Assembly: GCA_040414495.1 (NCBI GenBank)
Contig: JBEDUI010000081.1
Location: 528-64,527, forward strand
DNA: 64,000 nucleotides
From: Mycobacteriales bacterium
GTDB taxonomy: Bacteria; Actinomycetota; Actinomycetes; Mycobacteriales; QHCD01
Direction of reading: 5' to 3'
Shown here: one piece after another, positions 3,483-57,161 of the stretch
Numbering within the stretch: the first letter of the stretch is position 1
Layout: each line of letters begins with the position of its first letter
Made by a program: the position numbers and the translations under genes
Notes under the pieces: generated by a model
What the model saw: only the letters and a program-made list of their open reading frames with translations
The model's database searches: none
What the model was told of the DNA's origin: nothing

Positions 3483-3537
3483 GAAAGCGGAGACGTGCCG
3501 CCTCACCCCGTGGCCGAGGCGGACCGTCTCCGCTTTC
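3483..3537. terminator. bidirectional stem-loop between convergent genes
   Basis: GAAAGCGGAGACG (3483-3495) is the perfect complement of CGTCTCCGCTTTC (3525-3537). An inner CCGCCTC/GAGGCGG hairpin is also present. It lies between the flavin reductase stop and the sortase stop. Confidence 0.6.
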
Positions 3538-3552
3538 TGTGCCCTCTATGTG

Positions 3553-4215
3553 TTACGGACCAACTTTGGTCAGATGCGCCGACACCACGACGTTCTCCGG
3601 CGGCCGGCCGGGACGCAACGCGCCTCCGCAGCTGATGAGCCGGAGGGATGGGTACGTCGTGGGGGCGTAGATCTGCTCGGTCGGCAGCGTTCCGGGCCGG
3701 TAGCCACGGACGCTGTCGACCGAATACGTCGCCACGCGGCCGTCCTTGCGACGGACCGACATGGTCTGGTGCGGACCCAGTTTGGCGAGTCGGGCGAATA
3801 CGGCTGGCCTGCCGTCGCTCGCCCGGATGTAGCCGACAATGACGCTGGTGCCGGCCGAGCCAGGCGTCGCCGACCGGTCGTACCAACCTGCACGCGATGC
3901 CGGATGGGGCAGCTGCAGTTTGTGTTGGACGGTGCCGAGTCGGACCAACGAGCTGTCGACGCCCATAGTCGGGATGGCGATATGAACCGGATCCGAAGCC
4001 GGGAGCGCGGCCCCGCCGAGCGGGCGACTCGTCGTCGTTGACGATCCGTCCCGCCCGGCGTGTGGCGTCGGCCTCGCCCGGTTCGCGTCAGGGGATGGGT
4101 AACGCGAACCGAACAGGCCTGCGCCAAGCACGGCCGCCCCGGAGAGGATGAGGGCACCGACGGCCACCGACGCGATGATGCGTCGGCGACCGCCGTCGTG
4201 CCGTGCGCGAATCAC
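3553..4215 (-). CDS. sortase family protein, class F-like, with Tyr at the canonical catalytic His position
   Basis: N-terminal TM (IIASVAVGALILSGAAVLGAGLF), then IPTMGVDSSLVRLG...AGWY...GTSVIVGYIRASDGRPAVFARL...LRLISCGG...ENVVVSA, matching the class F sortase layout (xAGHVD....GPAVF / TCGG). The GTG start sits directly after the TAA stop of the upstream giant gene (TAAGTG). Confidence 0.8.
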   Translation of the reverse strand: MIRARHDGGRRRIIASVAVGALILSGAAVLGAGLFGSRYPSPDANRARPTPHAGRDGSSTTTSRPLGGAALPASDPVHIAIPTMGVDSSLVRLGTVQHKLQLPHPASRAGWYDRSATPGSAGTSVIVGYIRASDGRPAVFARLAKLGPHQTMSVRRKDGRVATYSVDSVRGYRPGTLPTEQIYAPTTYPSLRLISCGGALRPGRPPENVVVSAHLTKVGP

Positions 4216-7200
4216 TTAGAGCGGGAGTCCGCTCTCGTTCAGGCTGCTCAGCGGCGAACCGTTGGTGATCTGGCCAACCGGCAGACCACCCATGTCGGCG
4301 CCACCGAGGACGCTGGACAGACCGCCCAGACCCTGCAGCACGTTGGTCAGCCCAGTGATGTTCTGGACCGGCAGCTGGCTAACCGGAGAGGACACCGGAG
4401 CCGCAGCCGGGGCGACCGAAGCCGCACTCGGGCTGACGACCGGCAGCTGGCCGACGGGCAGCTGCCCGAGGGGCAGCTCCTCGAGCGGGTCACCGCCGAG
4501 GGCACCGGACAGACCGCCCAGACCCTGCAGCACGTTGGTCACACCGGTCAGGTTCTGGACCGGCAGGCCACCCAGCGGAGAAGACACCGGTGCGGCCACC
4601 GGGTGGATCTCCTGGGTCGAGGCCGCGGGCGCCGCGCCGCCACCGGCGACCGGCAGACCCTGCAGCGCGCTCGCCTGGCTCAGGACCGGCAGGCCCTGGC
4701 TCGCCAGACCGTTGCTGGCCACCCCGGCACCACCGAAGAGGCTGGTGAGCGGGTTGCTGGGCGCCTCACCCGGGTCGTTGAACGGGAAACCGTCCAGCGC
4801 GGCCGGGATGTGCATGACGTCCACCAGCGGGTTGCTCGGCACCGTGGTCGGGGTGTCGGTCAGCTCAGGGCTCTCGTTGAGCATGCCGTTGCCCTCGGCC
4901 AGCGCGATCAGGTTGCCGTCGATCGGCAGGTTGGTCGTGCCGGCGCCCTTGAAGTCCCGGGACGAACCCAGGTAGGACTCCGAGGGGTTGCCGTTCTCCG
5001 CGCCGTTGCCGGACGCGATCGCAACCACGTTGCCCACCACCGGCACGTTGATGTTGTCCGCGAGGTCAACATTCGAGCCGTACTTCTTCTGGGTGGGCGA
5101 GTCGAGCTGGGTCGGGTTGCCGTTCTGGTCGCCGTTGCCGTTGCTCAGCGCGGCGAAGCTCCCCAACACCGGGACGTTGACGTTGTCGGCGACGCCGAAG
5201 CTCTCGCCGTTGTTGTCCTTGGTGTCGACCTGCACCGGGTAACCGTTCTGCGACCCGTTGCCGTGGTCGACCGCCCAACCGGAGCCGTTCAGCGGGAGGT
5301 TCAGGTTGCGGAACAACCGGAACTCCGAGCCGTAACCGGAGCTGTCACCGTCCTGCGTGACGTGGCCGGGGTTTTCGTTGTTGAGCTGGGTCACGCCACC
5401 GTTCTGCGACCCGTTGCCGGAGTCGCCGGCCTGGCCCGCACCGGAGACCGGCAGGTTGACGTTGTCGCCGATGCCGATCCGGGAACCCGGGTTGCTGGCG
5501 GTGTCACCCTGGCTGACCAACTGGTTCTGCGTGCCGTTGCCGACATCCGCACCCTGGCCGACGCCGACCGCGGGGATGTTGATGTTACGGAACAGCAGCA
5601 GGCTCGAGCCCCACCCGGAGGTCACCGGGTCGGTGGTCGAACCGATACCAGAGGTGTTGTTCTGGTCGACCTTGCCGTTCTGCGACCCGTTGCCGGAGTC
5701 GCCGCCCTGACCCGCACCGTTCAGCGGGATGTTGACGTTGTCGCCAACGCTGAGGCTCGAGCCGGGGGTACGGCCGGTGTCGTTCTGGTTGACGACCTGG
5801 TTCTGCGCGCCGTTGCCGACGAGGCCGCCCTGACCCACACCCACGACCGGGATGTCGGCGTTACGCAGCAACTCGATCTGCGAGCCGAACCCACGGGCGG
5901 AGCCGTCCTTGGACAGCGTCCCGTTGTCGGTCCAGTTGCGCTGATGTACGTCGCCGTTCTGCGCGCCGTTGCCGGACGCGCCGCCCTGACCCGCACCGTT
6001 GATCGGGAAGATCGCGTTGTCCGCGACACCGATCTGCGAGCCGGGGTTGTTCCCGCTGTCGAACTGGGTGCGGTTCCCGTTCTGCGCGCCGTTACCGACG
6101 TCGCCGCCCTGACCCACGCCGATGGCGCCGCTGTCCAGGTTGCGGAACAGCTTGACCTCGGAGCCCCAGCCGTAGACGTCGTCAGCGACGCCGCCCTTGC
6201 CGGTCGTGGTCTGGGTGGTGTTGCCGTTCTGCGACCCGTTGCCGGTGACCCCGCCCTGCCCGACACCGACGGCCTGGATGATGCCGTTGTCGGCGATCGT
6301 GATCGACGAGCCGGGGCTGTTGTGGCTGTCGGTCTGGGTCGCGTTGCCGTTCTGCGACCCGTTGCCGGAGACCCCGCCCTGGCCCGCGCCGTTCAGCGGG
6401 GCGTAGACGTTGCGGAACACGTTGACGCTCTCGCCCCAACCGCCCACGCCGTCCTTGTTGACCCAGCCGTGGCCCTGGGTGTTGGTCTGGGTCTTGTCGC
6501 CGTTCTGCGCGCCGTTGCCGACGTCGCCGCCCTGGCCGACCCCGACCACCGGAATCGCGATGTTGTCCGCCGCGCTGATGGCCGACCCCTGGGTGTGGCC
6601 GTCATCGCTCTGGCTGACGTTGCCGTTCTGCGACCCGTTGCCGGAGACCCCGCCCTGACCCGCACCGTTCAACGGGATGTCGAGGTTACGGAACAGGTTG
6701 ACCGCCGAGCCCCAGCCCTGGATCTTGTCCGGGGTGTTGGAGCCCTCGCCGTTGGTGTTGCTCTGGTCGATGTTGCCGTTCTGCGCACCGTTGGCGACGT
6801 CACCGGCCTGGCCGGCGCCCGCGCCCTGCACGACCGCGTTGTCGGCGATCGAGACCGCCGAGCCCGGCGAACCGGCCTCGTCGACCTGCGACACGTCACC
6901 GTTCTGCGCCGCGTTGCCGACCACGCCAGCCTGCCCGGCACCGTCAATCGGCACCCGGACGTTGCGGAACAGGTTCACGGCCGAGCCGAACCCGGTGATG
7001 TTGTCGTAGCTCTGCGGCGGGTCGTTCGGCCCGAAGTTGGCCTGCGACACGTCGCCGTTCTGCGCGCCGTTGCCGACGACGCCCGCCTGACCCGCGCCGG
7101 TGGCCGGGATGTTCAGGTTGTCCGCCAGGCTGGCGAACGCCGGGTTGCCGCTGGGCTGATCCAGCTGCGAGATGTCGCCGTTCTGCGACCCGTTACCGAT

Positions 7201-8943
7201 GTCGCCGGCCTGACCCGCGCCGTTGAGCGGGGTGTTGGCGTTGCCGAGCAGGTTCAGACCCGAGCTGGTCGTGTTGTCCTGCAGCGCCTGGTCGACGTCG
7301 CCGTTCTGGGCGGCGTTACCGGTGTCGAATGCCTGGCCGGACGCGTTGACCGGCAGGTTCAGGTCGTCGACCAGCCGGAAGGCCGATCCCTCGCCACTGT
7401 CGCCGGTCCCTGCCATCGGGCTGGCGGCCGCGTTCGTCGTGCCGCGGTACGGCTCCGCCCCGTCGGTGTTGTCGGAGTACTGGGTGACGTCACCGTTCTG
7501 GGTGTTGTTGCCGGTGTCGACGGCCATGCCGTGCGCGTTGATCGGCACGTTGACGATGCCGGCGATGCCGTGCCCGTCGCCGAGCGTCTGGCTGACGGCG
7601 CCGTTCTGCGAGTTGTTGCCGCTGTCCACGGTCAAGACGTTGGCGTCAACCGGCATGTCGACGCTGCCCAGGATCCGCGACCCGTTGCCCTTGCCGACGT
7701 ACTCCTGGTCGATCGTCCCGTTCTGGGAGTTACGGCCGGAGTCGATGGCGGCCGCGGTCAGGTGCAGCGGAGCCTCGATGTCGCCGAGGGCGCCACCGGA
7801 CTTGGTGCTGTGCTGACCGGCCGGCGTACGCGGCTTGACGCCCACGTCGAGCAGCTCGATCTCGTGCCCGCTGGCCGTCTCGATGTTCGCGTGCGCGGTA
7901 GCCGCACTCAGTACGGTCTGCACCGGGTTGCTCGCGTCGGGCTTGAGCCCGCCGTCCGGTCCGATGCCCAGGTCGGGCGCCACCGGCAGGCCGGTGTCCT
8001 GCAGCGGCAGGCTCTTGCCCGCTGCCGACAGCTGGCCGGTCGGCTTCGTGGCCCCCGGCTGCAGCGATTCGGTGACCGTGCTGACGCCCTTGTTGAGCCC
8101 CTGCTCGGTCAGGTTCTGTGCAACCGGCAGGTTCCCGAGCATCGCCTTGGCCGCGTTGCTCGGCCCGGACGTCGCGTTGGCCAAGGTGTTGGCCGGCTTC
8201 GACTCGGGCGTGTTCTTCGGCGCGGCCGAAGCGGCTGGCAGATGACCCAGTACGGATCCGGCCGCCGGCAGTTGGCCCAGCGACTGCAGCGCGCTGGTCG
8301 GCGCCTGGACCAGGTTGGTCGGCGCCTGCAGCAGCGAGGTCGCCGAGTCCAGTCCAGGCAGACCACCGAGCAGCCCGCCGGACTGCTGCGGCCGGCTAAC
8401 CGGGTGCACAGTCTCGCGGGTGGCGTGCGTAGTGGTGTGCGCCGGAGCCGCGTGCGACGTGGCCACCTTGGGGGTGGTGGCCACGTGCGGGGCGGTGTGC
8501 GTCGCCGGCTGCGGAGCCGGAGCCGAGTGGGTGACCGGCGCCTGGGGCAGCGCGTGCTCCACGGTGCTGGTCGCACGACGGGCGGCCTTCACGACCGCCT
8601 TGGCCGGAGCCCCTGCCCGCTTCGTAGCAGCCCGCTTCGTAGCTGCCGGCTTGGCTGCCGACCTGGTCGGTGTCGCCTGGTGCGCCGGCGCTGCCGCACG
8701 GGGGGTCAGCGGCGACTGCGGCGAGAGGACATCGACGGTGTTGCTGACAATCTGCTTCGTGCTGTGCACCGCGTCCTGCACGGTGCCGTGCGTTGCCGAC
8801 CCTGACAATCCCGGCAACGCAAGTCTGGTCACGTCACTGGACGCCTTGCCCGGCGTGGAAGCGTGTGCCGCTCCCGCGCCGACCGCGACGAAACCCGCGG
8901 TGATGACGGCTGTTTCCAGTGATCTCCGGACCCAAGACTGCAT
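4216..8943 (-). CDS. 1575-aa secreted repeat protein (Asn/Gly/Gln-rich, solenoid-like), function unknown
   Basis: Signal peptide MQSWVRRSLETAVITAGFVAVGAGAAHA|ST, then an Ala/Pro/Thr/His-rich linker. This is followed by 22 repeats of N-[LIV]-x-[IV]-P-[LIV]-x-G-x-G-Q-[GA]-G-x-x-G-N-G-[SA]-Q-N-G and a duplicated C-terminal LPVQN[LI]TG[VL]TNVLQGLGGLS module. The antisense 1581-aa ORF (4060..8805) is a high-GC shadow. Confidence 0.85.
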   Translation of the reverse strand: MQSWVRRSLETAVITAGFVAVGAGAAHASTPGKASSDVTRLALPGLSGSATHGTVQDAVHSTKQIVSNTVDVLSPQSPLTPRAAAPAHQATPTRSAAKPAATKRAATKRAGAPAKAVVKAARRATSTVEHALPQAPVTHSAPAPQPATHTAPHVATTPKVATSHAAPAHTTTHATRETVHPVSRPQQSGGLLGGLPGLDSATSLLQAPTNLVQAPTSALQSLGQLPAAGSVLGHLPAASAAPKNTPESKPANTLANATSGPSNAAKAMLGNLPVAQNLTEQGLNKGVSTVTESLQPGATKPTGQLSAAGKSLPLQDTGLPVAPDLGIGPDGGLKPDASNPVQTVLSAATAHANIETASGHEIELLDVGVKPRTPAGQHSTKSGGALGDIEAPLHLTAAAIDSGRNSQNGTIDQEYVGKGNGSRILGSVDMPVDANVLTVDSGNNSQNGAVSQTLGDGHGIAGIVNVPINAHGMAVDTGNNTQNGDVTQYSDNTDGAEPYRGTTNAAASPMAGTGDSGEGSAFRLVDDLNLPVNASGQAFDTGNAAQNGDVDQALQDNTTSSGLNLLGNANTPLNGAGQAGDIGNGSQNGDISQLDQPSGNPAFASLADNLNIPATGAGQAGVVGNGAQNGDVSQANFGPNDPPQSYDNITGFGSAVNLFRNVRVPIDGAGQAGVVGNAAQNGDVSQVDEAGSPGSAVSIADNAVVQGAGAGQAGDVANGAQNGNIDQSNTNGEGSNTPDKIQGWGSAVNLFRNLDIPLNGAGQGGVSGNGSQNGNVSQSDDGHTQGSAISAADNIAIPVVGVGQGGDVGNGAQNGDKTQTNTQGHGWVNKDGVGGWGESVNVFRNVYAPLNGAGQGGVSGNGSQNGNATQTDSHNSPGSSITIADNGIIQAVGVGQGGVTGNGSQNGNTTQTTTGKGGVADDVYGWGSEVKLFRNLDSGAIGVGQGGDVGNGAQNGNRTQFDSGNNPGSQIGVADNAIFPINGAGQGGASGNGAQNGDVHQRNWTDNGTLSKDGSARGFGSQIELLRNADIPVVGVGQGGLVGNGAQNQVVNQNDTGRTPGSSLSVGDNVNIPLNGAGQGGDSGNGSQNGKVDQNNTSGIGSTTDPVTSGWGSSLLLFRNINIPAVGVGQGADVGNGTQNQLVSQGDTASNPGSRIGIGDNVNLPVSGAGQAGDSGNGSQNGGVTQLNNENPGHVTQDGDSSGYGSEFRLFRNLNLPLNGSGWAVDHGNGSQNGYPVQVDTKDNNGESFGVADNVNVPVLGSFAALSNGNGDQNGNPTQLDSPTQKKYGSNVDLADNINVPVVGNVVAIASGNGAENGNPSESYLGSSRDFKGAGTTNLPIDGNLIALAEGNGMLNESPELTDTPTTVPSNPLVDVMHIPAALDGFPFNDPGEAPSNPLTSLFGGAGVASNGLASQGLPVLSQASALQGLPVAGGGAAPAASTQEIHPVAAPVSSPLGGLPVQNLTGVTNVLQGLGGLSGALGGDPLEELPLGQLPVGQLPVVSPSAASVAPAAAPVSSPVSQLPVQNITGLTNVLQGLGGLSSVLGGADMGGLPVGQITNGSPLSSLNESGLPL
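4876..7791 (-). repeat. intragenic tandem repeat array (22 units; ~92-aa super-repeat made of alternating 41-aa and ~51-aa units)
   Basis: Counting residues, the xQNG/xQNQ/AENG cores fall at 406, 445, 481, 545, 586, 627, 679, 720, 771, 812, 863, 904, 953, 994, 1046, 1087, 1138, 1179, 1231, 1272, 1315 and ~1352. From residue 545 to 1272 the spacings are 41,41,52,41,51,41,51,41,49,41,52,41,51,41,52,41 (alternating after the first two). The long units carry G[WFY]GSxVxLFRN. Confidence 0.9.
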
Positions 8944-9034: not shown

Positions 9035-10303
9035 TTAGTCAGGGGAAGTAGAGGGCCGCTTCGAGACCGAGCGGGCCATGCTGGCATCGGTCGGGTCGAC
9101 CGTTCCCAGCGTGCGTAGCGGGGCGTCCGCGTCGGCGTCCAGCGCCGCCGGGGCGCTGCTGCCGACCGAGCCGGAAGAGTTCGCGTTGGCACCCGCGCCG
9201 CTGCTCACACCGCCGGACGGAGCGGGCGGAGCCGCCGGCGCGATCGGGGTGAGCGGCTGCGGGTGCGGCAGGCCATGGTCGGCGTGGCTGATCCGCACGC
9301 TGATGGCGAGCGGGACGCTCAACTCGTCGGCCTGACGGGTCGGTCCCGCCGCGGTCGACGTCGCCGGGACGACGTGGCGGCCGGTCTCCCGAACGACCCG
9401 GTGCGCGGCAGCCACCGTCCGCTGGTGAGCAGCGGGGGCGTGCCGGACGACCGTCGCGGCAACCGACCGGACCACCGGCGTGGTGCCGACGACCGGAGTC
9501 GTTCCCAAATCCACCGGGCCGAGCTGCTCGCCGGCCGGGACCGAAAGGCCGGGCAGCGAAACGTCCGGAGCGGTGTGCTGGACCGTCTGGTTCACGGTCG
9601 AGGTGACCCGGTGCACGGTCGAGGTGACCGGCGCGGTCACGGTCGACAGGTCGGGTGCCTTACCGGAGATGGTCTGCGTAACCGACTGAACCGGCTCGCT
9701 GACCTGCTTGGCTACATGAGTGGTCTGGTCGGTCAGCGACGTGGTGGCGTGCCGGGCAGCGTCGGTGATCGGAGTGACCACCTTCTGCGTGACCGGCTTG
9801 GCCGCATCCGTGACCGACCTACTCGCGTCACCGAGCCGATGCTCGAGTTGATCACGGACCTGGCTACCGATGTCGGTCGAGTCGAGCGTCTTTCCCAGAT
9901 CAGTCGGATCGTCGGAGTGCCGGCTCGGAGCCGGAGCCGACGGAAGGCTGGAGTGGGAAGAGGCCGCGTCTTCGGTCGCGCTCGAAGCGCTGTGTTGGGC
10001 GCGAACCGTGACCGACGCCGTGTGCCGGGAATGCACGACCTGCGAGACCGCGTGGTGAACCGAGTCCGAGAGACCGGACACCGGCTGGGCCTGGTGCGTG
10101 GTCTCGTCGACGCTGTGCAGTATCGAGGTCACCGGCGTCGCGTCCTGCGGCGTCGCCGCGTGCGCCATGCCGCCAATCGCGGTGGCGCCGATCCAACCGG
10201 CGACCGCAAAGCCGCCGGTCACGAGGAACCGGCGCGCGATCCGGACCGCGGTGGAGCGCTCGGACGCCTGGTGGCGCCTCGCCCTCTCCGGTCCGAACGA
10301 CAT
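9035..10303 (-). CDS. exported Thr/Val/Ser/His-rich protein, function unknown (first gene of the sortase-linked operon)
   Basis: N-terminal basic region plus a hydrophobic segment ending AHA|ATP (RFLVTGGFAVAGWIGATAIGGMAHAATPQD). The body is low-complexity with V-T-x-x-V type repeats (PVTQKVVTPITD..., VTAPVTSTVHRVTSTVNQTV). Same strand as the giant gene and 91 bp upstream of it. Confidence 0.65.
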   Translation of the reverse strand: MSFGPERARRHQASERSTAVRIARRFLVTGGFAVAGWIGATAIGGMAHAATPQDATPVTSILHSVDETTHQAQPVSGLSDSVHHAVSQVVHSRHTASVTVRAQHSASSATEDAASSHSSLPSAPAPSRHSDDPTDLGKTLDSTDIGSQVRDQLEHRLGDASRSVTDAAKPVTQKVVTPITDAARHATTSLTDQTTHVAKQVSEPVQSVTQTISGKAPDLSTVTAPVTSTVHRVTSTVNQTVQHTAPDVSLPGLSVPAGEQLGPVDLGTTPVVGTTPVVRSVAATVVRHAPAAHQRTVAAAHRVVRETGRHVVPATSTAAGPTRQADELSVPLAISVRISHADHGLPHPQPLTPIAPAAPPAPSGGVSSGAGANANSSGSVGSSAPAALDADADAPLRTLGTVDPTDASMARSVSKRPSTSPD

Positions 10304-48520: not shown

Positions 48521-50799
48521 ACCGGCCCCGCACGCCGCAGCGGCGCATCCAGTCGCCGCGGCGCTCCCCCGTGCCACGGCACCGGTCCGTCCTGGCCCCG
48601 GTGGTCGGGGTGGTGGTCGGGGCGCTGGTCGTGGCGGCCGGCTGGGTCGGACCGACGCCGGCCTCGGCCCAACCCGGTGGCGTGGACAACCTGACCTCCG
48701 GACCCAAGCAGGTCCGGGTGACCGTCGATCAGCTGAACCCGAAACTCATCAAGGCCGACTCGACCATCACCGCCACCGGCACTCTGACCAACGTCAGCGC
48801 GCACAAGGTCACCTCGCCGCAGATCCGGCTGCAGACCGGCACGCCGCTGACCGACCGGTCGCAGCTGACCGCGAACCCGCCACCCGAGGCCGGTGCATAC
48901 TCGTGCACCTTCAAGGACCTGCCGCACGACCTCGTCCCCGGACAATCCCAGAACTACACGGTCTCGTGTCCGGCCAGCACGCTCGGGCTGACCGCGACCG
49001 GTGTGTACCCACTGACCGTGAACGTCAACGGCACCTTGTTCGACGGCACAACCGCCCGGGTCGGCGAGGCCGACACGTCGCTGCCGTTCTTCACCCAAAA
49101 GCCGGCCGCGCCGACCAAGGTGTCCTGGCTGTGGCCCATCATCGACCGCCCGCACCAGTTCACCCCGGGTCTGCTCTACGGCGCCTCGCACAGGTTGCCC
49201 AGTGGTGTGTTCCGCGACGACGCGCTGGCCTCCTCACTCAAGGCGACCGGTCGCCTCGGCCGGCTCGTATCGACCGCGCTGTTCGCGCCGAAAGACGTCC
49301 AGCTGACCATCGTTCTGGACCCGGAGCTGATCAGCGAGGTGGCCGCCATGCGCAGCAGCTACCAGGTGGCCAACGGCTCCGCCACGGTCGCCGGCACCGG
49401 CAGCCGGGCCGCCCGCGACTGGCTGACCCGACTCGAGCGGCTGACCAAGCGGCCCGGCGTCACCGTCGACGTCCTGCCCTACGCCGACCCCGACCTGCTC
49501 GCCCTGGCCGACGGGCCAGTGGGACTGTCCGCCCGGATCGGGCCGGCCTACGAACAGGGTCTGAGCGCGATCCGGAAGATCATGCCGATCAACAACCCGC
49601 TCGCTCTGGCCTGGCCGGCCGACGGTCAGCTCGACAACAACACGCTCTACACCCTGGCCGGACAGTCGCTGGCCGGCGTGGTCGCCTCGTCCGACTCGCT
49701 GCCGCTGACGCAGAGCCAGACCCCGACCCCGAACGCCGCCGCCAGCATTCCGGCCCAGGGCACCACGCTGCGGGCGGTGGTGCCGGACAGCCAGCTCGGC
49801 AAGGTGGTCGGCATACCGCGGCTGACCAAGGGCCTGCGGTTGAGCGAGCAGGAGTTCATCTCCGAGCTGGCCATGATCACCGCGGAGGCGCCCAGCAACG
49901 CCCGCAGCATCGTCATCGCGCCGCCGCGCCGCTGGGCCACCTCGCCGTCCTATCTCAAGGCGATGCTCGAGGACAGCACCTCTTTGCCGTGGGCCCAGAG
50001 CACGTCGGTCTCCGACACGCTGGCCGCCCCGATCACGGCCCAGCGCGGCGCGCTGCAGCATCCGGCCAACGCGAGCCGGAACCAGGTGACGCAGACCCAG
50101 CTGAGCACGCTGAGCGGCGACCTGGGCTCGCTCAACAGCTTCAGCTCGACCCTGTCCAATCAGGACGCCGACACGCTGCTGACCCCGTATTACAAGGCCA
50201 TCCTCACCGCCAGCTCCTCGGCCTGGCGGAGCGACCAGCCGCTGGGCGAGTCGTTTCTGCGCGACCTCGGTCAGGCGATCGCGGGCCTGCAGTCCCGGGT
50301 GTACGTGGTGGCGCCGTCGACCAAGCAACGCAGCTACACCCTGGCCTCTTCGTCCAGCCCGCTGGTGCTGACGGTCGCCAATACGTTCAATGTCCCGGTC
50401 AAGGTGCTGGTCCAGGTCATCCCGCGCGGTTCGGCCGGCTTCCGGGCCAGCTCGGTACCGGTCACGATCGCCCCGAACTCGCGGCAGACGGTCAAGGTGC
50501 CGGCGCACGTCGAACGGTCGGGCAGCTTCTCGGTCATGGCCGGCATCACGACCCCGCAGGGCAGCGGACAGGTTCTCGGACAACAGGTGCAGTTGAAGGT
50601 ACGGAGCACCGCATACGGAGTGGTCACCCTGGGCATCACCGGCGGCGCGTTCGCCCTCCTGCTTCTGCTGGTCATGCTGCGGCTCTACCGCCGTATCCGG
50701 GCATCCCGCCGGCCACCGGAGCCGCACGATCCCTCAGTCGAGTACCCGACCGGTGAATACCCGACCCTGACCCGGCACCGCTCGGACGCCGCCTCATGA
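48517..50799 (+). CDS. conserved actinobacterial exported protein with C-terminal TM anchor (Rv3909-like, DUF6049-type)
   Basis: Signal/[23 protein letters not shown] and C-terminal [25 protein letters not shown]. Syntenic between NUDIX and murJ. GTGA start/stop overlap with NUDIX and ATGA overlap with murJ. Confidence 0.75.
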
Positions 50800-52820
50800 G
50801 CGACTACTACCCACGCGGCGCACCACCGCGGCCACCGCATCGTTCGCGGCCCCCGCAGCAGCCTCGGCAACAAGCTCCGCAGCGACCGCCGCAACAGCCT
50901 CCGCCGCGGCCACCACGCGAGCCGTACCGCGACCGCTACCAAGGTGCGTACGAAGACCTCTACAGCGACGACTACTACAGCCCGCAACCGCTGGGCAGCT
51001 GGAACGGCGACGAACCGTATTCCAGCCTCGTCCTCGGCCGCTGGGACGGGCATCGGATCGTCAGCCCGGAAGAGGACGCGCAACGGCAGGGCCTCGAGGC
51101 ACCGCCGATCAAACCGCGCAAGCAGCTGTACACGGTCACCGCACGCGGCGGGGTGCGCCGGGTCGGGCCGAGCGAGGTCGGGGCCGAGCAGCGCCAGCCG
51201 GGAACCCGGGCCGGCGCCGAGCCGAGCCTGGCCCGGTCCAGCCGCATCATGGCGATCGCCAGCGCGACTTCCCGGATCACCGGCTTCGCCCGGCAGATCG
51301 CGCTGACCGCCGCGGTCGGCCTCGGCCTGATCGGCGACGCGTACAACACCGCCAACTACCTGCCCAACATCGTCTACGAGCTGCTGCTCGGCGGCGTGCT
51401 CACCTCGGTGATCGTGCCGCTGCTGGTGCACGCGCAACGCAACCACGCCGACGACGGCGAGGCGTACGCGCAGCGGCTGCTGTCCCTGGCCACGGTGATG
51501 TTGACCGTCGCCACGATTCTCGCGGTCCTGGCGGCGCCATTACTGGTCCGGTTATTCGGCATCTCCGGCGGTTCGCAGGAACACGTGGCGACGTGGCTGG
51601 CCAGACTGCTGTTACCCGAGATGGTCTTCTACGGCGTCGGGGCGATGCTCGGCGCGATCCTGAATACCCGCGGCGTCTTCGGCCCACCGATGTGGGCGCC
51701 GGTCCTGAACAACGTTGTCGTCATTCTTACGGCCGCGCTGTTCTTCGTCATGCCCGGGCCGCACACGTTGACGGTCGAGTCGATGACCACGGCCCAGATC
51801 CTGGTGCTGGGCATCGGTACGACGTTGGGCATCGTGGCCCAGACAATCGTGCTGCTGCCGTATGTGCGCCGAGTCGGCTTCCGCTGGCGGTGGCGCTTCG
51901 ACCTGCGCGGATCCGGGCTCGGCCAGGACGGCGCGCTCCTGCTGTGGGTCATCGGGTACGTCGTGGTGAGCCAGATCGGCGTCTCCACGATCGTGCACCT
52001 GTCGAACTCGGCCGGGACCGAGAGCGGCGGCATCGGGTACGCGGTGTACGCCAACGCCAGCCTGCTGTTCCAGATGCCGTACGGCATCGTCGGCGTCGCG
52101 CTGCTGACCGCGCTACTGCCCCGGATGAGCCGGGCCGCGGCGACCGGCGACATTCGCCGGATGCTCGATGACCTGTCGCTGGGCAGCCGGCTCACCGCGG
52201 TCGCGCTGATCCCGATCACCGTCGGTTTCATCGTGCTCGGGCCGGCGATCGCGGTGTCGATCTTCGCTCACGGGCGCACCTCGATCAGCAGCGCACACAC
52301 CATGGGTCTGGCCCTGGCATGGTCGGCGTTCGGTCTGCTGCCGTACGCGATGACGTTGCTGCAGTTGCGCGCGTTCTACGCGGTCAAGGACGCCCGGACG
52401 CCGACTCTGATCAACGTTGCGATTGTGGCGTTCCGCTTGGTCATCTGCTTCATCGTGCCGGTAATCCTGCCGGCGCGGCAGGTGGTCATTGGGCTCGCGG
52501 TTGCCAACAGCCTGTCATTCATAGTCGGTCTGGTGCTCGGGGATGTGCTGCTGCGTAAGCGGTTCGGGCCGCTGGGCACCGGCCGGTTGGTCCGGACGAG
52601 TACGCAGATGCTGATCGCATCTATCATCGGCGGGCTCGTCGCCTGGCTGGCCCTGTACGTCATCACCCAGGAATTCGGTTCGGGCCGGGCCGGCTACACG
52701 CTGGCCACCATCGTCGGCTGTCTGGCCGGTGGCGTCGTCGCGTTCATCGTGGCGATGCGCCTGCGGGTCGAGGATCTCAATGCGGCGGTGGGCCGGGTCC
52801 GCCAACAACTCGGACGATGA
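50796..52820 (+). CDS. murJ: lipid II flippase MurJ (MviN) with ~150-aa Pro/Gln/Tyr-rich N-terminal extension
   Basis: SRITGFARQIALTAAVGLGLIGDAYNTANYLPNIVYELLLGGVLTSVIVPLLV plus 14 TM-like segments. Confidence 0.92.
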   Translation: MSDYYPRGAPPRPPHRSRPPQQPRQQAPQRPPQQPPPRPPREPYRDRYQGAYEDLYSDDYYSPQPLGSWNGDEPYSSLVLGRWDGHRIVSPEEDAQRQGLEAPPIKPRKQLYTVTARGGVRRVGPSEVGAEQRQPGTRAGAEPSLARSSRIMAIASATSRITGFARQIALTAAVGLGLIGDAYNTANYLPNIVYELLLGGVLTSVIVPLLVHAQRNHADDGEAYAQRLLSLATVMLTVATILAVLAAPLLVRLFGISGGSQEHVATWLARLLLPEMVFYGVGAMLGAILNTRGVFGPPMWAPVLNNVVVILTAALFFVMPGPHTLTVESMTTAQILVLGIGTTLGIVAQTIVLLPYVRRVGFRWRWRFDLRGSGLGQDGALLLWVIGYVVVSQIGVSTIVHLSNSAGTESGGIGYAVYANASLLFQMPYGIVGVALLTALLPRMSRAAATGDIRRMLDDLSLGSRLTAVALIPITVGFIVLGPAIAVSIFAHGRTSISSAHTMGLALAWSAFGLLPYAMTLLQLRAFYAVKDARTPTLINVAIVAFRLVICFIVPVILPARQVVIGLAVANSLSFIVGLVLGDVLLRKRFGPLGTGRLVRTSTQMLIASIIGGLVAWLALYVITQEFGSGRAGYTLATIVGCLAGGVVAFIVAMRLRVEDLNAAVGRVRQQLGR

Positions 52821-52953
52821 GGAGCGCACTGACTCGTGACAACCGTCGCCACAGCACCTGCGTCTGGACGTGTGGTGTGTTCGATCCAGTTTCTGGCTGG
52901 TGCATGCCTGGACGGTTGCGCATACTGGGTTGGTCACCGATGGGGGGAGAGCG

Positions 52954-54441
52954 GTGAGTTCTGACGTCGCCAGCGGACGGGCATCATCCGGCCGGTTGGG
53001 CTCCCGTTACGAGTTGCACGAGCGCATCGAAACCTCCACGACACGCTCGTCCCGTCTCACATCGTGGCGTGCCTACGACACCACCCTGCGCCGGCAAGTC
53101 CGGCTCGACGTGCATCGTCCCGGCGGCGAGGCCGCCCGCCGGTTTCTGACCACCGCGTACGCCGCGGGCGCGGTGACCCACCCGGCTCTGGCCCGGGTGC
53201 TCGACGTCGTCGACGAAGGTCAGCAGGCCTACGTGGTCAGCGCCTGGATCGACGGCACCCCGCTGACCCGGTTGTTGTCCGAGTCGCCGTTCGAGCCCGA
53301 TCAGGCCGCGTCCATCGTCGGCCAGCTCACCGACGGGGTCATCGCCGCCCACCAGGCCGGCACGACGGTCGGCGTGCTCCGCCCGGATCATCTGCTCCTC
53401 ACGCCCAGCGGCACCGTGACCCTCGTACGGGTGCCCCGACCCGGCCCGACTCCGACCGATGACGTGCGCGGCCTGGGCGCCCTGCTGTACGCCGCACTGA
53501 CCAGCCGTTGGCCGCTGGACACCGGCGGCGCCGGCCTGCCGCCCGCGCCCACCACCAGCGGCCGGCTGTGCACTCCGCGCCAGCTGCGCGCCGGCATCCC
53601 AGCCGACCTGTCCAACCTCACGATGCGGGCGCTGTACCCAGACCAGCCCGGAGGCATCAGCTCGGCCACCACGTTCGCCGACGCGATCCGGGCCCGGACC
53701 GGGCCGCCGCCGGACCTGCTGCCGTTCCGTGGCGCCGGCGAGCCACCCGAGCCGGACGACCGACCGGAGCGGACCCGCCGTAGCTCCACTCGGCTGGTGG
53801 TGCCCCTGGCCTGCCTGCTCGTATTCGGCCTGATGGCCTGGTTGGTGGTCAGTGTGGTCACCGGGAATGGCAACCACGGCTCCAAGCCGGCCGCCGCCGG
53901 TCAGTCGCCGAAAACGTCGGCCTCGGCGACGCATCCGTCGCGCTCATCGACCTCTGGTCACAAGGCGCCGGCCCACGAGGTGTCGGCACCCACCGCGATC
54001 AAGGCCGCCAGCGTGAACAGCTTCAATCCGTATAACCAGCCGCCCGGCGACGACAACGCGTCGAAAGTCGGGTTGGCCTCGGACGGCAATCCAGCCACGG
54101 CCTGGGAGACCGATCCGTACAGCCGTTCGCCCAAATTCGGCAACCTGAAGCCGGGTTCGGGCCTGATATTCGACATGGGCTCTGCCGTCACGATCCGGCA
54201 GATCCGTATCAGTACGCCCACTCCGGGTATCTCGTTACAGGTGCTGGCGGCCGACTCCCCGTCCGAGGCACAGAACTCGATGACGGTGGTCGGCAGCGAG
54301 TCGCACACTGGTTCGTCGATGACGGTCTCGTCGGCATCGAAGACGCCGCATCGCTACTGGGTCGTCTGGCTCACCGAGTTGGCGCCGACGTCGTCGGGTC
54401 AGTACCAGGGCGGCATCAGCGAGGTCCGTTTCCTGCACTAA
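52954..54441 (+). CDS. membrane pseudokinase: intracellular kinase-like domain, single TM, extracellular F5/8 type C (discoidin)-like domain
   Basis: ORF trimmed to GTG 52954 (GGGGGGAGAG upstream). The kinase-like fold lacks the canonical catalytic motifs as far as I can see. TM LVVPLACLLVFGLMAWLVVSVV. C-terminal DGNPATAWETD...GGISEVRF. It matches the C-terminal half of M. tuberculosis MviN. Confidence 0.75.
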   Translation: MSSDVASGRASSGRLGSRYELHERIETSTTRSSRLTSWRAYDTTLRRQVRLDVHRPGGEAARRFLTTAYAAGAVTHPALARVLDVVDEGQQAYVVSAWIDGTPLTRLLSESPFEPDQAASIVGQLTDGVIAAHQAGTTVGVLRPDHLLLTPSGTVTLVRVPRPGPTPTDDVRGLGALLYAALTSRWPLDTGGAGLPPAPTTSGRLCTPRQLRAGIPADLSNLTMRALYPDQPGGISSATTFADAIRARTGPPPDLLPFRGAGEPPEPDDRPERTRRSSTRLVVPLACLLVFGLMAWLVVSVVTGNGNHGSKPAAAGQSPKTSASATHPSRSSTSGHKAPAHEVSAPTAIKAASVNSFNPYNQPPGDDNASKVGLASDGNPATAWETDPYSRSPKFGNLKPGSGLIFDMGSAVTIRQIRISTPTPGISLQVLAADSPSEAQNSMTVVGSESHTGSSMTVSSASKTPHRYWVVWLTELAPTSSGQYQGGISEVRFLH

Positions 54442-54494
54442 TGACGGACCGACATGGTCCGTGGGTAGGCAGGCATCGGAGATACGGCGGAGCG

Positions 54495-55127
54495 ATGGCA
54501 CGTCTGACTGGTACGCAGCAATCCGACTATTCTCGCACCGTGCCCGCGGCCGGTGATCCCACCCAGATGAGCGACGCCGAGTTGCTACGAGCCCACGTGG
54601 CCGGCGACCCCTATGCGTTCGACACCCTCATCAAACGGCACCGGGACCGGCTCTGGGCGGTCGCTCTGCGGACCATGCGGGACCCCGACGAGGCGGCCGA
54701 CGCCCTGCAGGACGCGCTGATCTCCGCGTTCCGGGCGGCCGGATCGTTCCGCGCCGAGTCCGCGGTCACCACCTGGCTGCACCGCATCGTCGTCAACGCC
54801 TGCCTCGACCGCATTCGCCGGCGTAAGGCCCGGCCGACCGTCAGCCTGCCCGAGGAAGGTCCGGGTGAGCCGGTCGAGCGGCGCGACCAGATCTCCGAAC
54901 GGGACACGGCGATGGCGATCGAGGCGGCGCTCGGTGAGTTGCCGGTCGAGCAACGGGCCGCGATCACGCTGGTCGACCTGGAGGGCTACTCGGTCGCCGA
55001 CAGCGCGCAGATCCTCGGCGTCGCCGAAGGCACCATCAAAAGTCGGTGCGCCCGGGGCCGCGCGCGGTTGGCGACTCTCCTCGGACACCTGCGGAACCAG
55101 GACGGGCCATCGGTCGTCGCACCGTAG
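54495..55127 (+). CDS. sigM: ECF RNA polymerase sigma factor SigM-like
   Basis: Region 2 DEAADALQDALISAFR...VTTWLHRIVVNACLDRIRR. Region 4 LPVEQRAAITLVDLEGYSVADSAQILGVAEGTIKSRCARGRARL. ATG 54495 has GGAG upstream. Confidence 0.88.
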   Translation: MARLTGTQQSDYSRTVPAAGDPTQMSDAELLRAHVAGDPYAFDTLIKRHRDRLWAVALRTMRDPDEAADALQDALISAFRAAGSFRAESAVTTWLHRIVVNACLDRIRRRKARPTVSLPEEGPGEPVERRDQISERDTAMAIEAALGELPVEQRAAITLVDLEGYSVADSAQILGVAEGTIKSRCARGRARLATLLGHLRNQDGPSVVAP

Positions 55128-55150
55128 TTGGCACGTATTGGGGAGGCGCG

Positions 55151-56008
55151 ATGAGTGCTGAGGATCGGCTCGAGCCGGTGTTCGGACCAGATGGCCAGCC
55201 GGACGCAGCGACCTTGGCGGGCTTGGAGCTCGACGCATTCGACGCCGAGACCACGGCTATGATCCGCGCCCGTCTGAGCGAATCCCCCAAATCCCGCGAA
55301 ACTCTCGCCGCCCTGGATGCTGTCCGGGACCGGCTGCACGAGCAACCGACTCCGCGGATGCCGGATGCGGTCGCGGACCGGATCTCGGCCGCCTTACGGT
55401 CCGAGCAGCAGGCGCGTGCCGCCGGTCCGCCCGCCATCGCGGAGGAGTCGCGGCAGCCGCAGCAGACCGCCGGAGTCGTCAGCCTCGAGGAGGCCCGGAC
55501 GCGACGCGCGCGCCGTACCCGCCGACTCGGTCTGGCCGCTGCGGGGGTCGCGGTCCTCGCCGCCGGTGGCATCGTTTACGGCGTCACCGCCCAGAACTCG
55601 ACCAGCGGCAACCCCCAGCAACCGAACCAGGCGCTGGTCCACCCCTCCGCGGGCGCGAAGTCCTCGCACCAGGTCGGGCAGCCGGACATCGGACAGTCCG
55701 CACCGCATCAGACCGCCGTCCCCAGCTACACCAAAGACAACCTTCGGGCCGCGTTGCCCACCATCGTCGCCACGTCCAAGACCGGCGTGAACGTCCCCGG
55801 CGGTTCGAGCGCCGGGCCCGACATAGCCGCCTGCAGCGGGACGCTCGGTCAGAAGTCCGAACCGCTCGCCGTGCAGCACGCGCAGTTCCAGGGCCGCAGC
55901 TCGTACGTCTTCGTCTACCCGACCGGAACCGACCACCAGGCCAAGGTCTTCGTCGTCAGCCCGACCTGCACCGGTGCCCCGCTCTACCAGACGAGCGGTC
56001 AGTACTGA
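55151..56008 (+). CDS. anti-sigma-M factor-like membrane protein
   Basis: Immediately downstream of sigM. Single TM LGLAAAGVAVLAAGGIVYGV after a ~120-aa cytoplasmic domain. GGGAGG RBS. Confidence 0.7.
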   Translation: MSAEDRLEPVFGPDGQPDAATLAGLELDAFDAETTAMIRARLSESPKSRETLAALDAVRDRLHEQPTPRMPDAVADRISAALRSEQQARAAGPPAIAEESRQPQQTAGVVSLEEARTRRARRTRRLGLAAAGVAVLAAGGIVYGVTAQNSTSGNPQQPNQALVHPSAGAKSSHQVGQPDIGQSAPHQTAVPSYTKDNLRAALPTIVATSKTGVNVPGGSSAGPDIAACSGTLGQKSEPLAVQHAQFQGRSSYVFVYPTGTDHQAKVFVVSPTCTGAPLYQTSGQY

Positions 56009-56189
56009 GCACGTAGCGGGTTTATCGGACAGCGGTACCGGGTGTGGCCTGGTCCTACGGCCCGGTGCGGGAATGTCAACCCCGTAGGATCCGTTGGGCG
56101 CGATGGTGGGTCGCAACCGATTCAAGAACGGCTCGACCACCGTGCTTCAAGTGACTTCAGGTGCTTGCAGGCGAGGGAAGGGTCCAGGC

Positions 56190-57161
56190 GTGAGCAGCGA
56201 AGACATCCGCAACGTCATCATCATCGGTTCAGGTCCGGCCGGATACACGGCCGCGCTGTACACCGCTCGCGCCAACCTGGAGCCGCTCGTTTTCGAGGGC
56301 AGCCAGTACGGCGGCGCGCTGATGACCACCACCGAGGTGGAGAACTACCCGGGTTTCACCGAGGGCATCCTCGGCCCCGAGCTCATGGAGACGATGCGGT
56401 CCCAGGCTGAGCGGTTCGGAGCGGAACTGCGCCCCGACGACGTAGCCGAGGTCGACCTGTCCGGTCCGGTGAAGACCGTGACCGCCAGCGGCAAGACCTA
56501 CCGAGCCCGGGCCGTCATCGTGGCGACCGGTTCGGCGTACCGGTACCTGGGGCTGGGCAGCGAGAAGGAACTGCTCGGTCACGGCGTATCGGCGTGTGCG
56601 ACCTGTGACGGGTTCTTTTTCCGCGATCAGGACATCGCCGTGGTCGGCGGCGGCGACACCGCCATGGAAGAGGCGACGTTCCTCACCCGGTTCGCGCGCA
56701 GCGTGACGATCATCCACCGCCGCGACCAGTTGCGGGCCAGCAAGATCATGCAGGAGCGGGCGTTCAACAACGACAAGATCCGGTTCGTCTGGGACAGCGA
56801 AGTCACCGAGGTGCTCGGCGACAAGTCGGTGACCGGTGTACGGCTACGCAACCGGGTCACCGGCGATGAGTCGACGCTCGAGGTGAGCGGGCTGTTCGTC
56901 GCGATCGGACACGAGCCGCGCACCGAGCTGGTTCGGGGCCAGCTGAAGCTGGACGACAGTGGGTACGTCGTTGTCGAGTCGCCCTCGACCCGGACCAACC
57001 TCGACGGCGTGTTCGCGTGTGGCGATGTCGTCGACCACACGTACCGTCAGGCCATCACCGCCGCGGGGACCGGCTGTTCGGCGGCGTTGGACGCCGAGCG
57101 TTGGCTCGCCGCTCAGGACGAGGCCGGCGAGCCCGCACCCAGCTCAGCCGTCACCGCCTGA
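56190..57161 (+). CDS. trxB: thioredoxin-disulfide reductase
   Basis: [16 protein letters not shown], active site CATCDG, second fold [15 protein letters not shown] start at 56190. Confidence 0.95.

Follow-up and report, generated by a model that had tools for sequence, protein, structure and literature searches.

A sortase-like protein with tyrosine at the catalytic histidine site belongs to a conserved, probably non-catalytic clade derived from class F sortases

The 64,000-nucleotide stretch of a Mycobacteriales bacterium analysed here (contig JBEDUI010000081.1; hereafter the window) carries a gene for a 220-residue sortase-like protein directly downstream of a gene for a giant repeat protein. 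In this sortase-like protein a tyrosine, Tyr129, stands where class F sortases have their catalytic histidine, and the cysteine at the nucleophile position, Cys196, is kept. The replacement is conserved in orthologues and throughout a monophyletic clade, where it is accompanied by a retained sortase fold, conserved synteny and purifying selection. On this basis the protein is probably a class F-derived, non-catalytic pseudo-sortase, held in the membrane, whose proposed task is to bind a surface protein. That it would have lost canonical transpeptidase activity is well supported, given established sortase chemistry; the binding or retention role and its target are speculative.

In a gap-free alignment with canonical class F sortases, Tyr129 lies under the invariant His of G-H-[VI]-D and Cys196 under the invariant Cys of TCGG. 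The segment containing Tyr129 is GTSVIVGYIRASDGRPAVFARL, in which GTSVIVG-Y-I aligns to class F G.AV..G-H-V-D, and LISCGG likewise aligns to LITCGG. A family profile connects these two columns to solved sortases: its His column matches the catalytic His of C. perfringens SrtD (4d70, 'IAGHRN') and T. fusca SrtE (9iok, 'VAGH'), and its Cys column matches the catalytic Cys of the same two structures. An AlphaFold model of the window protein has a mean predicted local distance difference test score (pLDDT) of 83, rising above 90 for residues 76-220. In this model Tyr129 is the last residue of strand 122-129, Cys196 the last of strand 189-196 and Asn208 the first of strand 208-219, which are the positions predicted for the canonical active-site residues at β4, β7 and β8 of sortases. 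When the model was compared with the PDB by Foldseek, all top matches were sortases (E ~1e-8, probability 1.0). The original prediction that a TAC-encoded Tyr replaces the catalytic His is therefore borne out by the alignment, by the profile comparison with solved structures and by the strand positions in the model, and the Cys motif is retained as had been claimed (codon TGC at 3630-3628).

A different His at the catalytic position, which would have overturned that assignment, was looked for and not found. His98, His104 and His149 of the window protein fall in variable alignment columns, so that none of them can take this place, and His214, at the far end of β8, is not invariant. An active class F sortase is expected to have its catalytic His in G-H-[VIL]-D at the end of β4, as do 124 of 124 canonical relatives, and its Cys in [TS]CGG at the end of β7; the window protein has the second of these features and lacks the first. 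With regard to the third catalytic residue, both His-bearing and Tyr/Phe-bearing class F proteins have Asn (Asn208) in the column where T. fusca SrtE has its catalytic Arg, although the profile alignment is weak (E ~0.01), and on this alignment the third catalytic residue of class F may be placed differently from that of other sortase classes. Asn208 (codon 3592-3594) is almost invariant across class F, and Arg192, which precedes the Cys by four residues, does not vary in either group. PDB searches by sequence, profile and fold found no solved class F structure. An hhalign comparison of the Tyr/Phe-clade profile with S. aureus SrtA gave a probability of 2% and was ambiguous near the His, and it was not used for residue equivalence.

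An exhaustive HMMER search of 1.84 billion representatives returned 8,573 relatives, and the catalytic columns were tabulated in the best 150 of these together with earlier matches (about 194 sequences). The His site holds His in 124, Tyr in 61, Phe in 9 and Gln in 1, and Cys is present in all 124 His-bearing relatives. Orthologues of the window protein, at 53-68% identity, all read VGYI or VGFI, and four of them (P0005-P0008) combine Phe at position 129 with the Cys. This comparison, which the original prediction had proposed, thus gives Tyr or Phe throughout and a CAC-encoded His in none. It also bears on the suggestion, made at the same time, that an ordinary class F sortase had been altered from CAC to TAC by a sequencing or assembly error or by a mutation private to the strain. 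The two codons are only one transition apart, but Tyr or Phe recurs in independent assemblies from varied samples and taxa (L001, L004, L010, L012, L013, L102 and P0002-P0009) and across the whole clade, in company with many other clade-specific substitutions, so that an error and a private mutation are both refuted.

In a neighbour-joining tree from which the two catalytic columns had been excluded, the window protein falls into a monophyletic group of 38 sequences whose sister group is formed by the His/Cys sequences; we refer to this group as the GYI clade. Its members are defined by G-[YF]-I in place of G-H-V-D, by an 11-residue β7-β8 loop ending in xxGNVVV, by the loss of Lys174, Asp201 and Tyr205, and by monophyly; the window protein shows all of these features. 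The former His site is Tyr or Phe in 39 of 39 clade members. The β7-β8 loop has 11 residues in 37 of 39, against 13 residues in 100 of the 124 His-bearing relatives, and the class F residues that have been lost are frequent in the His-bearing group (Asp131 in 105/124, Lys174 in 107/124, Asp201 in 88/124 and Tyr205 in 118/124). The clade keeps P103, W111, P118, G119, G122, G128, F140, R156, D158, R192, G197, G198 and N208. Its β6-β7 loop is unchanged in length (18 residues) and retains the motif F/L177-P178…V182-Y183. Column-by-column comparison with the His-bearing relatives revealed no new conserved polar residue. In characterised sortases, recognition of the sorting signal falls to the β6-β7 loop, and the β7-β8 loop has an effect on how substrate and nucleophile are handled. 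The β7-β8 loop of sortases is the subject of a dedicated study (PMC8361268).

Of the 39 members of the GYI clade, 20 keep the Cys; the others have T, V, S, G, I or M in its place, and these replacements are spread over several branches of the tree. Changes from Tyr to Phe have also recurred, including within the orthologous group of the window protein itself. Because both kinds of change are scattered over the tree, they represent repeated events. A scan of a genome collection used a CGG-containing pattern that biased its matches towards Cys-bearing, mostly canonical sortases. A profile search with an alignment of the family, run against an index of 5.8 billion proteins, contributed few further members on account of its word filter. 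Selection was estimated from pairwise comparisons of the window, L001 and L004, in which the ratio of nonsynonymous to synonymous substitution rates (dN/dS) is 0.21-0.39 for the sortase domain and 0.70-0.84 for the N-terminal anchor and linker. The value for the domain lies well below that for the linker, and therefore the domain is under selection and the gene is not a decaying one.

The presumed partner of the sortase-like protein is encoded next to it. Three genes on the minus strand form a unit in which a gene for a 422-residue protein comes first, the giant-protein gene second and the sortase-like gene last. The TAA stop codon of the giant-protein gene (4216-4218) abuts the GTG start at 4215, and the two genes are, judged from their sequences, translationally coupled. 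The giant protein has 1575 residues, is rich in Gly, Asn and Gln, and contains repeats that alternate between 41 and 51 residues with the motif [LF][FA][RD]N...P..G.GQ.G..GNG.QNG...Q. No match to it was found in Pfam or NCBIfam, and its sole named homologue, 39% identical, comes from Fodinicola acaciae and is called 'beta strand repeat-containing protein'. The giant protein probably belongs to an undescribed family of repeat-containing surface proteins with a β-solenoid or fibre-like shape. A search of an index of 5.8 billion proteins with the giant protein gave only two matches. A metagenome scan with its C-terminal 500 residues gave nothing, and one with a five-sequence alignment gave 6 loci.

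The giant protein has no C-terminal membrane anchor, no LPXTG and no hydrophobic basic tail, and the absence of LPXTG, noted at the outset for the other products of the operon, was confirmed for the 1575- and 422-residue proteins alike. The C-termini of giant proteins are nevertheless LP-rich: GGLPVGQITNGSPLSSLNESGLPL in the window, …ALPLGKLS in L012, …GLPVGGVSDL…GLPVGGLS in L010 and …GGLPSVGQLPLG in Fodinicola. At the level of the whole system, the sorting-signal protein expected beside an active class F sortase was not found among the open reading frames (ORFs) of the window, these two neighbours included, nor was a second sortase-family gene found there. Weak matches to a sortase hidden Markov model at 52840-54438 and 54938-56005 were rejected as pseudokinase-like and anti-sigma-like proteins with low-complexity regions.

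The module is conserved in other genomes. It occurs with the same flanking genes in a Mycobacteriales metagenome-assembled genome (MAG; L001, L002, L009), in soil metagenome contigs (L004, L005, L100) and in MAGs and contigs of Jatrophihabitantaceae (L012, L102 and, partially, L010). Altogether, the combination of a protein ending in ...SPD, a giant protein and a Tyr-type sortase-like protein is present in at least 5 further loci, down to ~43% identity. A canonical His/Cys class F sortase is encoded elsewhere in the orthologous Mycobacteriales MAG (L042).

In other lineages the genes of the GYI clade directly follow surface-protein genes, usually with CARDB, DUF11 or DUF7507 domains. The C-termini of these surface proteins consist of x-P-x-G-[GA]-[VA]-x-[AT]-G-x-G, a hydrophobic segment and RR, and match the NCBIfam model NF058571 'GVDTG sorting domain' (GVDTG_CTERM) slightly below its cutoff. 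The clade member is succeeded by the gene for a canonical His/Cys class F sortase at L011 and L089, and at L011 the stop and start codons overlap. At L006-L008 a polytopic sortase-like protein, in which Ser stands for His and Tyr for Cys, comes first, and a canonical class F sortase and then a clade member with Tyr and Thr at the two sites come after it. With a crude regular expression, a candidate sorting-signal ORF was found at most 3 kb from a sortase-family gene in 41 of 88 loci, and on inspection about 35 of the 41 are credible GVDTG-type proteins encoded directly upstream of a canonical class F gene. Since GVDTG-type proteins so often stand in this position, theirs seems likely to be the native class F sorting signal, and a GVDTG-type protein followed by a canonical sortase appears to be the normal class F arrangement of substrate and enzyme. 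The pseudo-sortases have inherited the genomic position of class F sortases. The literature search found no mention of the GVDTG signal, which is present only as an NCBIfam model.

The reading of the window protein as a pseudoenzyme is preferred because the His has been exchanged for aromatic residues that include Phe, the Cys is dispensable across the clade, and further active-site residues have been lost, at the same time as the fold, the β6-β7 loop and the anchor have been retained under selection and in conserved synteny. The divergent or inactive pseudo-sortase that had been proposed from the single sequence is in this way supported by a pattern that extends over a clade. Because active-site residues are lost and the β6-β7 loop is retained, we infer that catalysis has probably been given up and the binding surface kept. 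The protein keeps the predicted anchor, the linker and an extracytoplasmic β-barrel with its β6-β7 loop, has lost the general acid/base His, and would serve as a membrane-tethered module that binds the giant repeat protein produced from the coupled upstream gene. The giant protein could in this way be held at the surface of the cell or be presented for assembly. Its LP-rich C-terminus (…GGLPVGQITNG…GLPL) may be seen as resembling a sorting signal minus its membrane tail. In the lineage of the window, where no active sortase is adjacent, the pseudo-sortase may retain or organise the giant protein. In the lineages that have a complete signal and a real class F sortase, clade members stand beside both, and therefore a role accessory to sorting is probable there.

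Several observations weigh against the pseudo-sortase reading. Firstly, Cys196 is invariant in the subclade associated with giant proteins (window, P0002-P0009, P0047, L010, L012, L013 and L102), over 42-68% identity, so the thiol could still be important in this group. Secondly, the dN/dS of the domain, at 0.2-0.4, is above the values usual for enzymes. Thirdly, in an AlphaFold single-chain chimera of the last 40 residues of the giant protein, a linker and the domain, the peptide was not docked; its pLDDT was 43-47, only PVGQIT reached 50 or more, and the idea of a peptide in the groove is neither supported nor excluded by it. Finally, the genes for the ...SPD protein and the giant protein also occur in Fodinicola acaciae with no sortase-like gene beside them, which shows that giant protein and sortase-like protein need not be paired.

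That Cys196 is so strictly conserved in the subclade associated with giant proteins keeps alive the alternative that the protein is still an enzyme, namely a transpeptidase or protease that depends on Cys196 and in which catalysis is arranged differently, with Tyr129 or another residue standing in for His. Its substrate would be a non-LPXTG motif in the giant protein, for example LPVGQ or the C-terminal GLPL; in a variant, a long-lived thioester would tether the giant protein to the sortase-like membrane protein. The invariance of Arg192 and Asn208 next to the active site would agree with such a mechanism, as would the coupling to a protein with C-terminal LP-x-G motifs that resemble the start of the GVDTG signal. 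Yet established sortase chemistry needs His as general acid/base, and mutants of SrtA at His120 lose activity. Furthermore, the orthologues P0005-P0008 pair the Cys with Phe, which can neither donate nor accept a proton, the clade as a whole has replaced the Cys several times independently, and it has lost other class F residues near the active site without gaining a conserved polar one. The different catalytic arrangement that the original prediction had allowed for is accordingly judged unlikely, given the interchange of Tyr and Phe, the dispensable Cys and the lack of a new polar residue. A Cys-Tyr cross-linked cofactor was also considered and was rejected because orthologues carry Phe.

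A second group of degenerate sortase relatives was encountered in Actinomadura and Actinoallomurus (P0016-P0046; L098/L099 8001-8561 of Actinomadura sp. DC4). It forms a separate clade of sortase-domain remnants of ~180 residues, more degenerate than the GYI clade, with Tyr or Phe at the former His site in 30 of 31 members, Tyr being typical, and with W, V, R, L, F or A where the Cys would be. These proteins are mostly without a membrane anchor, are annotated 'class F sortase' and are encoded as orphans downstream of a short-chain dehydrogenase/reductase (SDR) gene.

The existence of this more degenerate clade is one reason to ask if the window protein is a functionless relic, that is, an inactive class F paralogue that persists by genomic inertia. 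Its lost catalytic residues, its score below the NCBIfam family cutoff, its fairly relaxed dN/dS and the Fodinicola giant protein that lacks a sortase-like neighbour all fit such a history. A relic, however, would not be expected to preserve an intact ORF with a conserved anchor and fold and with 14 invariant residues across a clade at ~30-68% identity, nor to hold Tyr or Phe as strictly as the GYI clade and the Actinomadura-type clade both do. The operon position is moreover conserved in several families, and the dN/dS of the domain is clearly below that of the linker. A functionless relic is for these reasons quite improbable, and the pseudo-sortase with a binding role remains the interpretation that we prefer.

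A broader proposal can be put forward with considerable doubt. Class F-derived pseudo-sortases might form a functional class of their own, as membrane-anchored, non-catalytic receptors of sorting-signal-like C-termini. In some bacteria they would be obligatory partners of an active class F sortase, as a pseudoenzyme-enzyme pair; here they would replace covalent anchoring, with the 1575-residue fibre-like protein tethered non-covalently or through a Cys196 thioester.

Comparison with known systems helps to place these proteins. Class F sortases (NF033748) share with the window protein a β-barrel, an N-terminal anchor, a gene directly downstream of a surface-protein gene and the motifs GW[YF]..S..PG, PAVF, R.DG, LRLI[ST]CGG and N.VV.A. 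The window protein differs from them in the Tyr that replaces His, in the lost Asp131, Lys174, Asp201 and Tyr205, in a β7-β8 loop shorter by 2 residues, in its score below the family cutoff, and in a neighbour without a GVDTG or LPXTG signal and membrane tail. To our knowledge, the only characterised class F sortase is SrtF of Cutibacterium/Propionibacterium acnes. All sortases are said to use a His-Cys-Arg triad (PMC8225981). Published work assigns no physiological role to class F, and Actinoplanes is reported to show no phenotype when four srtF genes are knocked out (PMC8225981; PMC13251363).

The nearest functional parallel comes from another enzyme family. SipA/LepA of S. pyogenes is a signal-peptidase homologue that lacks the catalytic residues and is essential for sortase-dependent pilus assembly (PMC4049620). 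Like the window protein, it is the homologue of a processing enzyme in which the fold and peptide-binding cleft are kept and the catalytic residues are gone, its gene lies together with genes for surface proteins and sortases, and its proposed mode of action is to bind a component at the cell surface. Unlike the window protein, it has the fold and ancestry of a signal peptidase, and its requirement for assembly was demonstrated by experiment. YwpE of Bacillus subtilis, a truncated sortase-like protein of doubtful activity and substrates (PMC8225981), has a comparable sortase-like annotation; it is, however, a single truncated case, in contrast to a complete domain in a conserved and widespread clade. 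A full-text literature search for inactive sortases or pseudo-sortases found nothing relevant, and the GYI clade is apparently a real, undescribed non-catalytic branch of the sortase family.

The assignment of the window protein to the sortase superfamily (MEROPS C60 fold) rests on Pfam Sortase (PF04203), with 65.2 bits against a cutoff of 26.6. The best NCBIfam model is class_F_sortase (NF033748), whose score of 134.4 bits stays below the cutoff of 166. A phmmer search with the protein gave no match among PDB sequences, and solved sortases were reached only with the family profile. An Arg-rich stretch (R3, R5, R10-12) precedes the anchor, from which a type II topology is predicted that would place the sortase domain extracellularly. 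A disordered linker of ~40 residues connects the anchor to the barrel. The public annotation (P0001) begins at M84 and has 137 residues, shorter than the 220-residue ORF. Arg11, Arg12 and hydrophobic anchor residues are invariant in the alignment of orthologues; because the N-terminal RR and the transmembrane segment are thus conserved, the 220-residue form from GTG 4215 is the real product and P0001 truncates it. The features of the window are collected in Table 1.

Table 1. Positions of the sortase-like gene, its parts and the adjoining features in the window.
Feature	Position	Strand	Description
Sortase-like gene	3553..4215	minus	220 aa; GTG start at 4215; stop codon 3553-3555
N-terminal membrane anchor	4111..4179	minus	approximately residues 13-35; AlphaFold2 (AF2) helix 17-34; conserved in orthologues
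Sortase-fold β-barrel domain	3556..3990	minus	residues 76-220; pLDDT >90; Foldseek matches; dN/dS 0.21-0.39
Tyr129 codon TAC	3829..3831	minus	catalytic His site of class F sortases
Cys196 codon TGC	3628..3630	minus	retained nucleophile position in LISCGG
Giant-protein gene	4216..8943	minus	1575 aa; secreted, Cys-free; at least 21 GNGxQNG repeats; presumed partner
First gene of the module	9035..10303	minus	422 aa; N-terminal signal or anchor; C-terminal ...STSPD
Inverted repeat	3483..3537		22-nt arms; between convergent sortase-like and flavin-reductase genes; probable bidirectional terminator at the operon end

Further observations concern the surroundings of the module. In the Jatrophihabitantaceae loci the giant-protein and sortase-like genes are separated by an insertion of ~1 kb with small conserved ORFs (L012 8874-9167, L010 487-729 and L102 6549-6872); one of these ends in ...GRHRKK[KR]GLAAAGL...TGGLRRRK, like a tail anchor, and another has a signal peptide of the giant-protein type. 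Small, low-complexity secreted or anchored proteins always precede the giant protein (9035-10303 in the window; L012 3612-4571; L097 9151-9870 and 15306-16175). They end in ...[PT][VS]SPD, in Fodinicola also precede the long chaplin described below, and as a family had no match in the databases searched. Elsewhere in the window, visual inspection of the translations suggests that the plus-strand region 50796-57161 encodes MurJ-like flippase, pseudokinase-like, anti-sigma-like and thioredoxin-reductase-like proteins. The giant module of related genomes lies near ssb (L001) or rpsF-ssb-rpsR-rplI-dnaB (L097), and this suggests an origin-proximal location in the core genome.

In Fodinicola acaciae, a second ...SPD protein and a 680-residue protein (L097 16293-18335) adjoin the giant module. 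The latter has ten chaplin (PF03777) repeats and an anchor composed of LPVTG, a transmembrane segment and RRR. It has a signal peptide, xWxRRSLxxxxxTGGFVxxGxxAAHA, in common with the giant GNGxQNG proteins, which hints that chaplin and giant proteins are related or use a common route of export or regulation.

Among the class F loci examined (L020-L087), L033 8881-9741 and L063 8208-9728 are examples of a GVDTG-type protein encoded before a canonical sortase. The polytopic proteins mentioned above (L006 8156-9346 and L008 2602-3735) have 377-396 residues, with a polytopic membrane N-terminus and a sortase-like domain that carries Ser and Tyr at the catalytic sites, and by these residues they would be another, independent catalytically dead relative of sortases. 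At L008 13693-14382 lies the start of a 1039-residue protein for which precomputed Pfam matches give DUF7507 (CLIPPER_2) and Sortase; it is possibly a fusion of a surface protein with a sortase domain.

Members of the GYI clade are named 'sortase' or 'class F sortase' in the databases, and many entries with such names (for example P0003, P0043, P0049 and P0054) are probably not enzymes. Sortases are targets for drugs and biotechnology, and class F is the least understood class. The present analysis suggests that sortase-fold proteins can have a non-catalytic role in the handling of surface proteins, and that the route by which the giant GNGxQNG proteins of these soil actinobacteria arrive at the surface or remain there is probably an uncharacterised one. 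Among cultured organisms, the clade is carried by Kribbella sp. GL6 (WP_427886975.1) and Microlunatus soli (WP_157683104.1), and the giant protein by Fodinicola acaciae. If pseudo-sortases do act as receptors of sorting-signal-like C-termini, actinobacteria would be seen to retain surface proteins in a new way, and class F systems would gain a first physiological handle.

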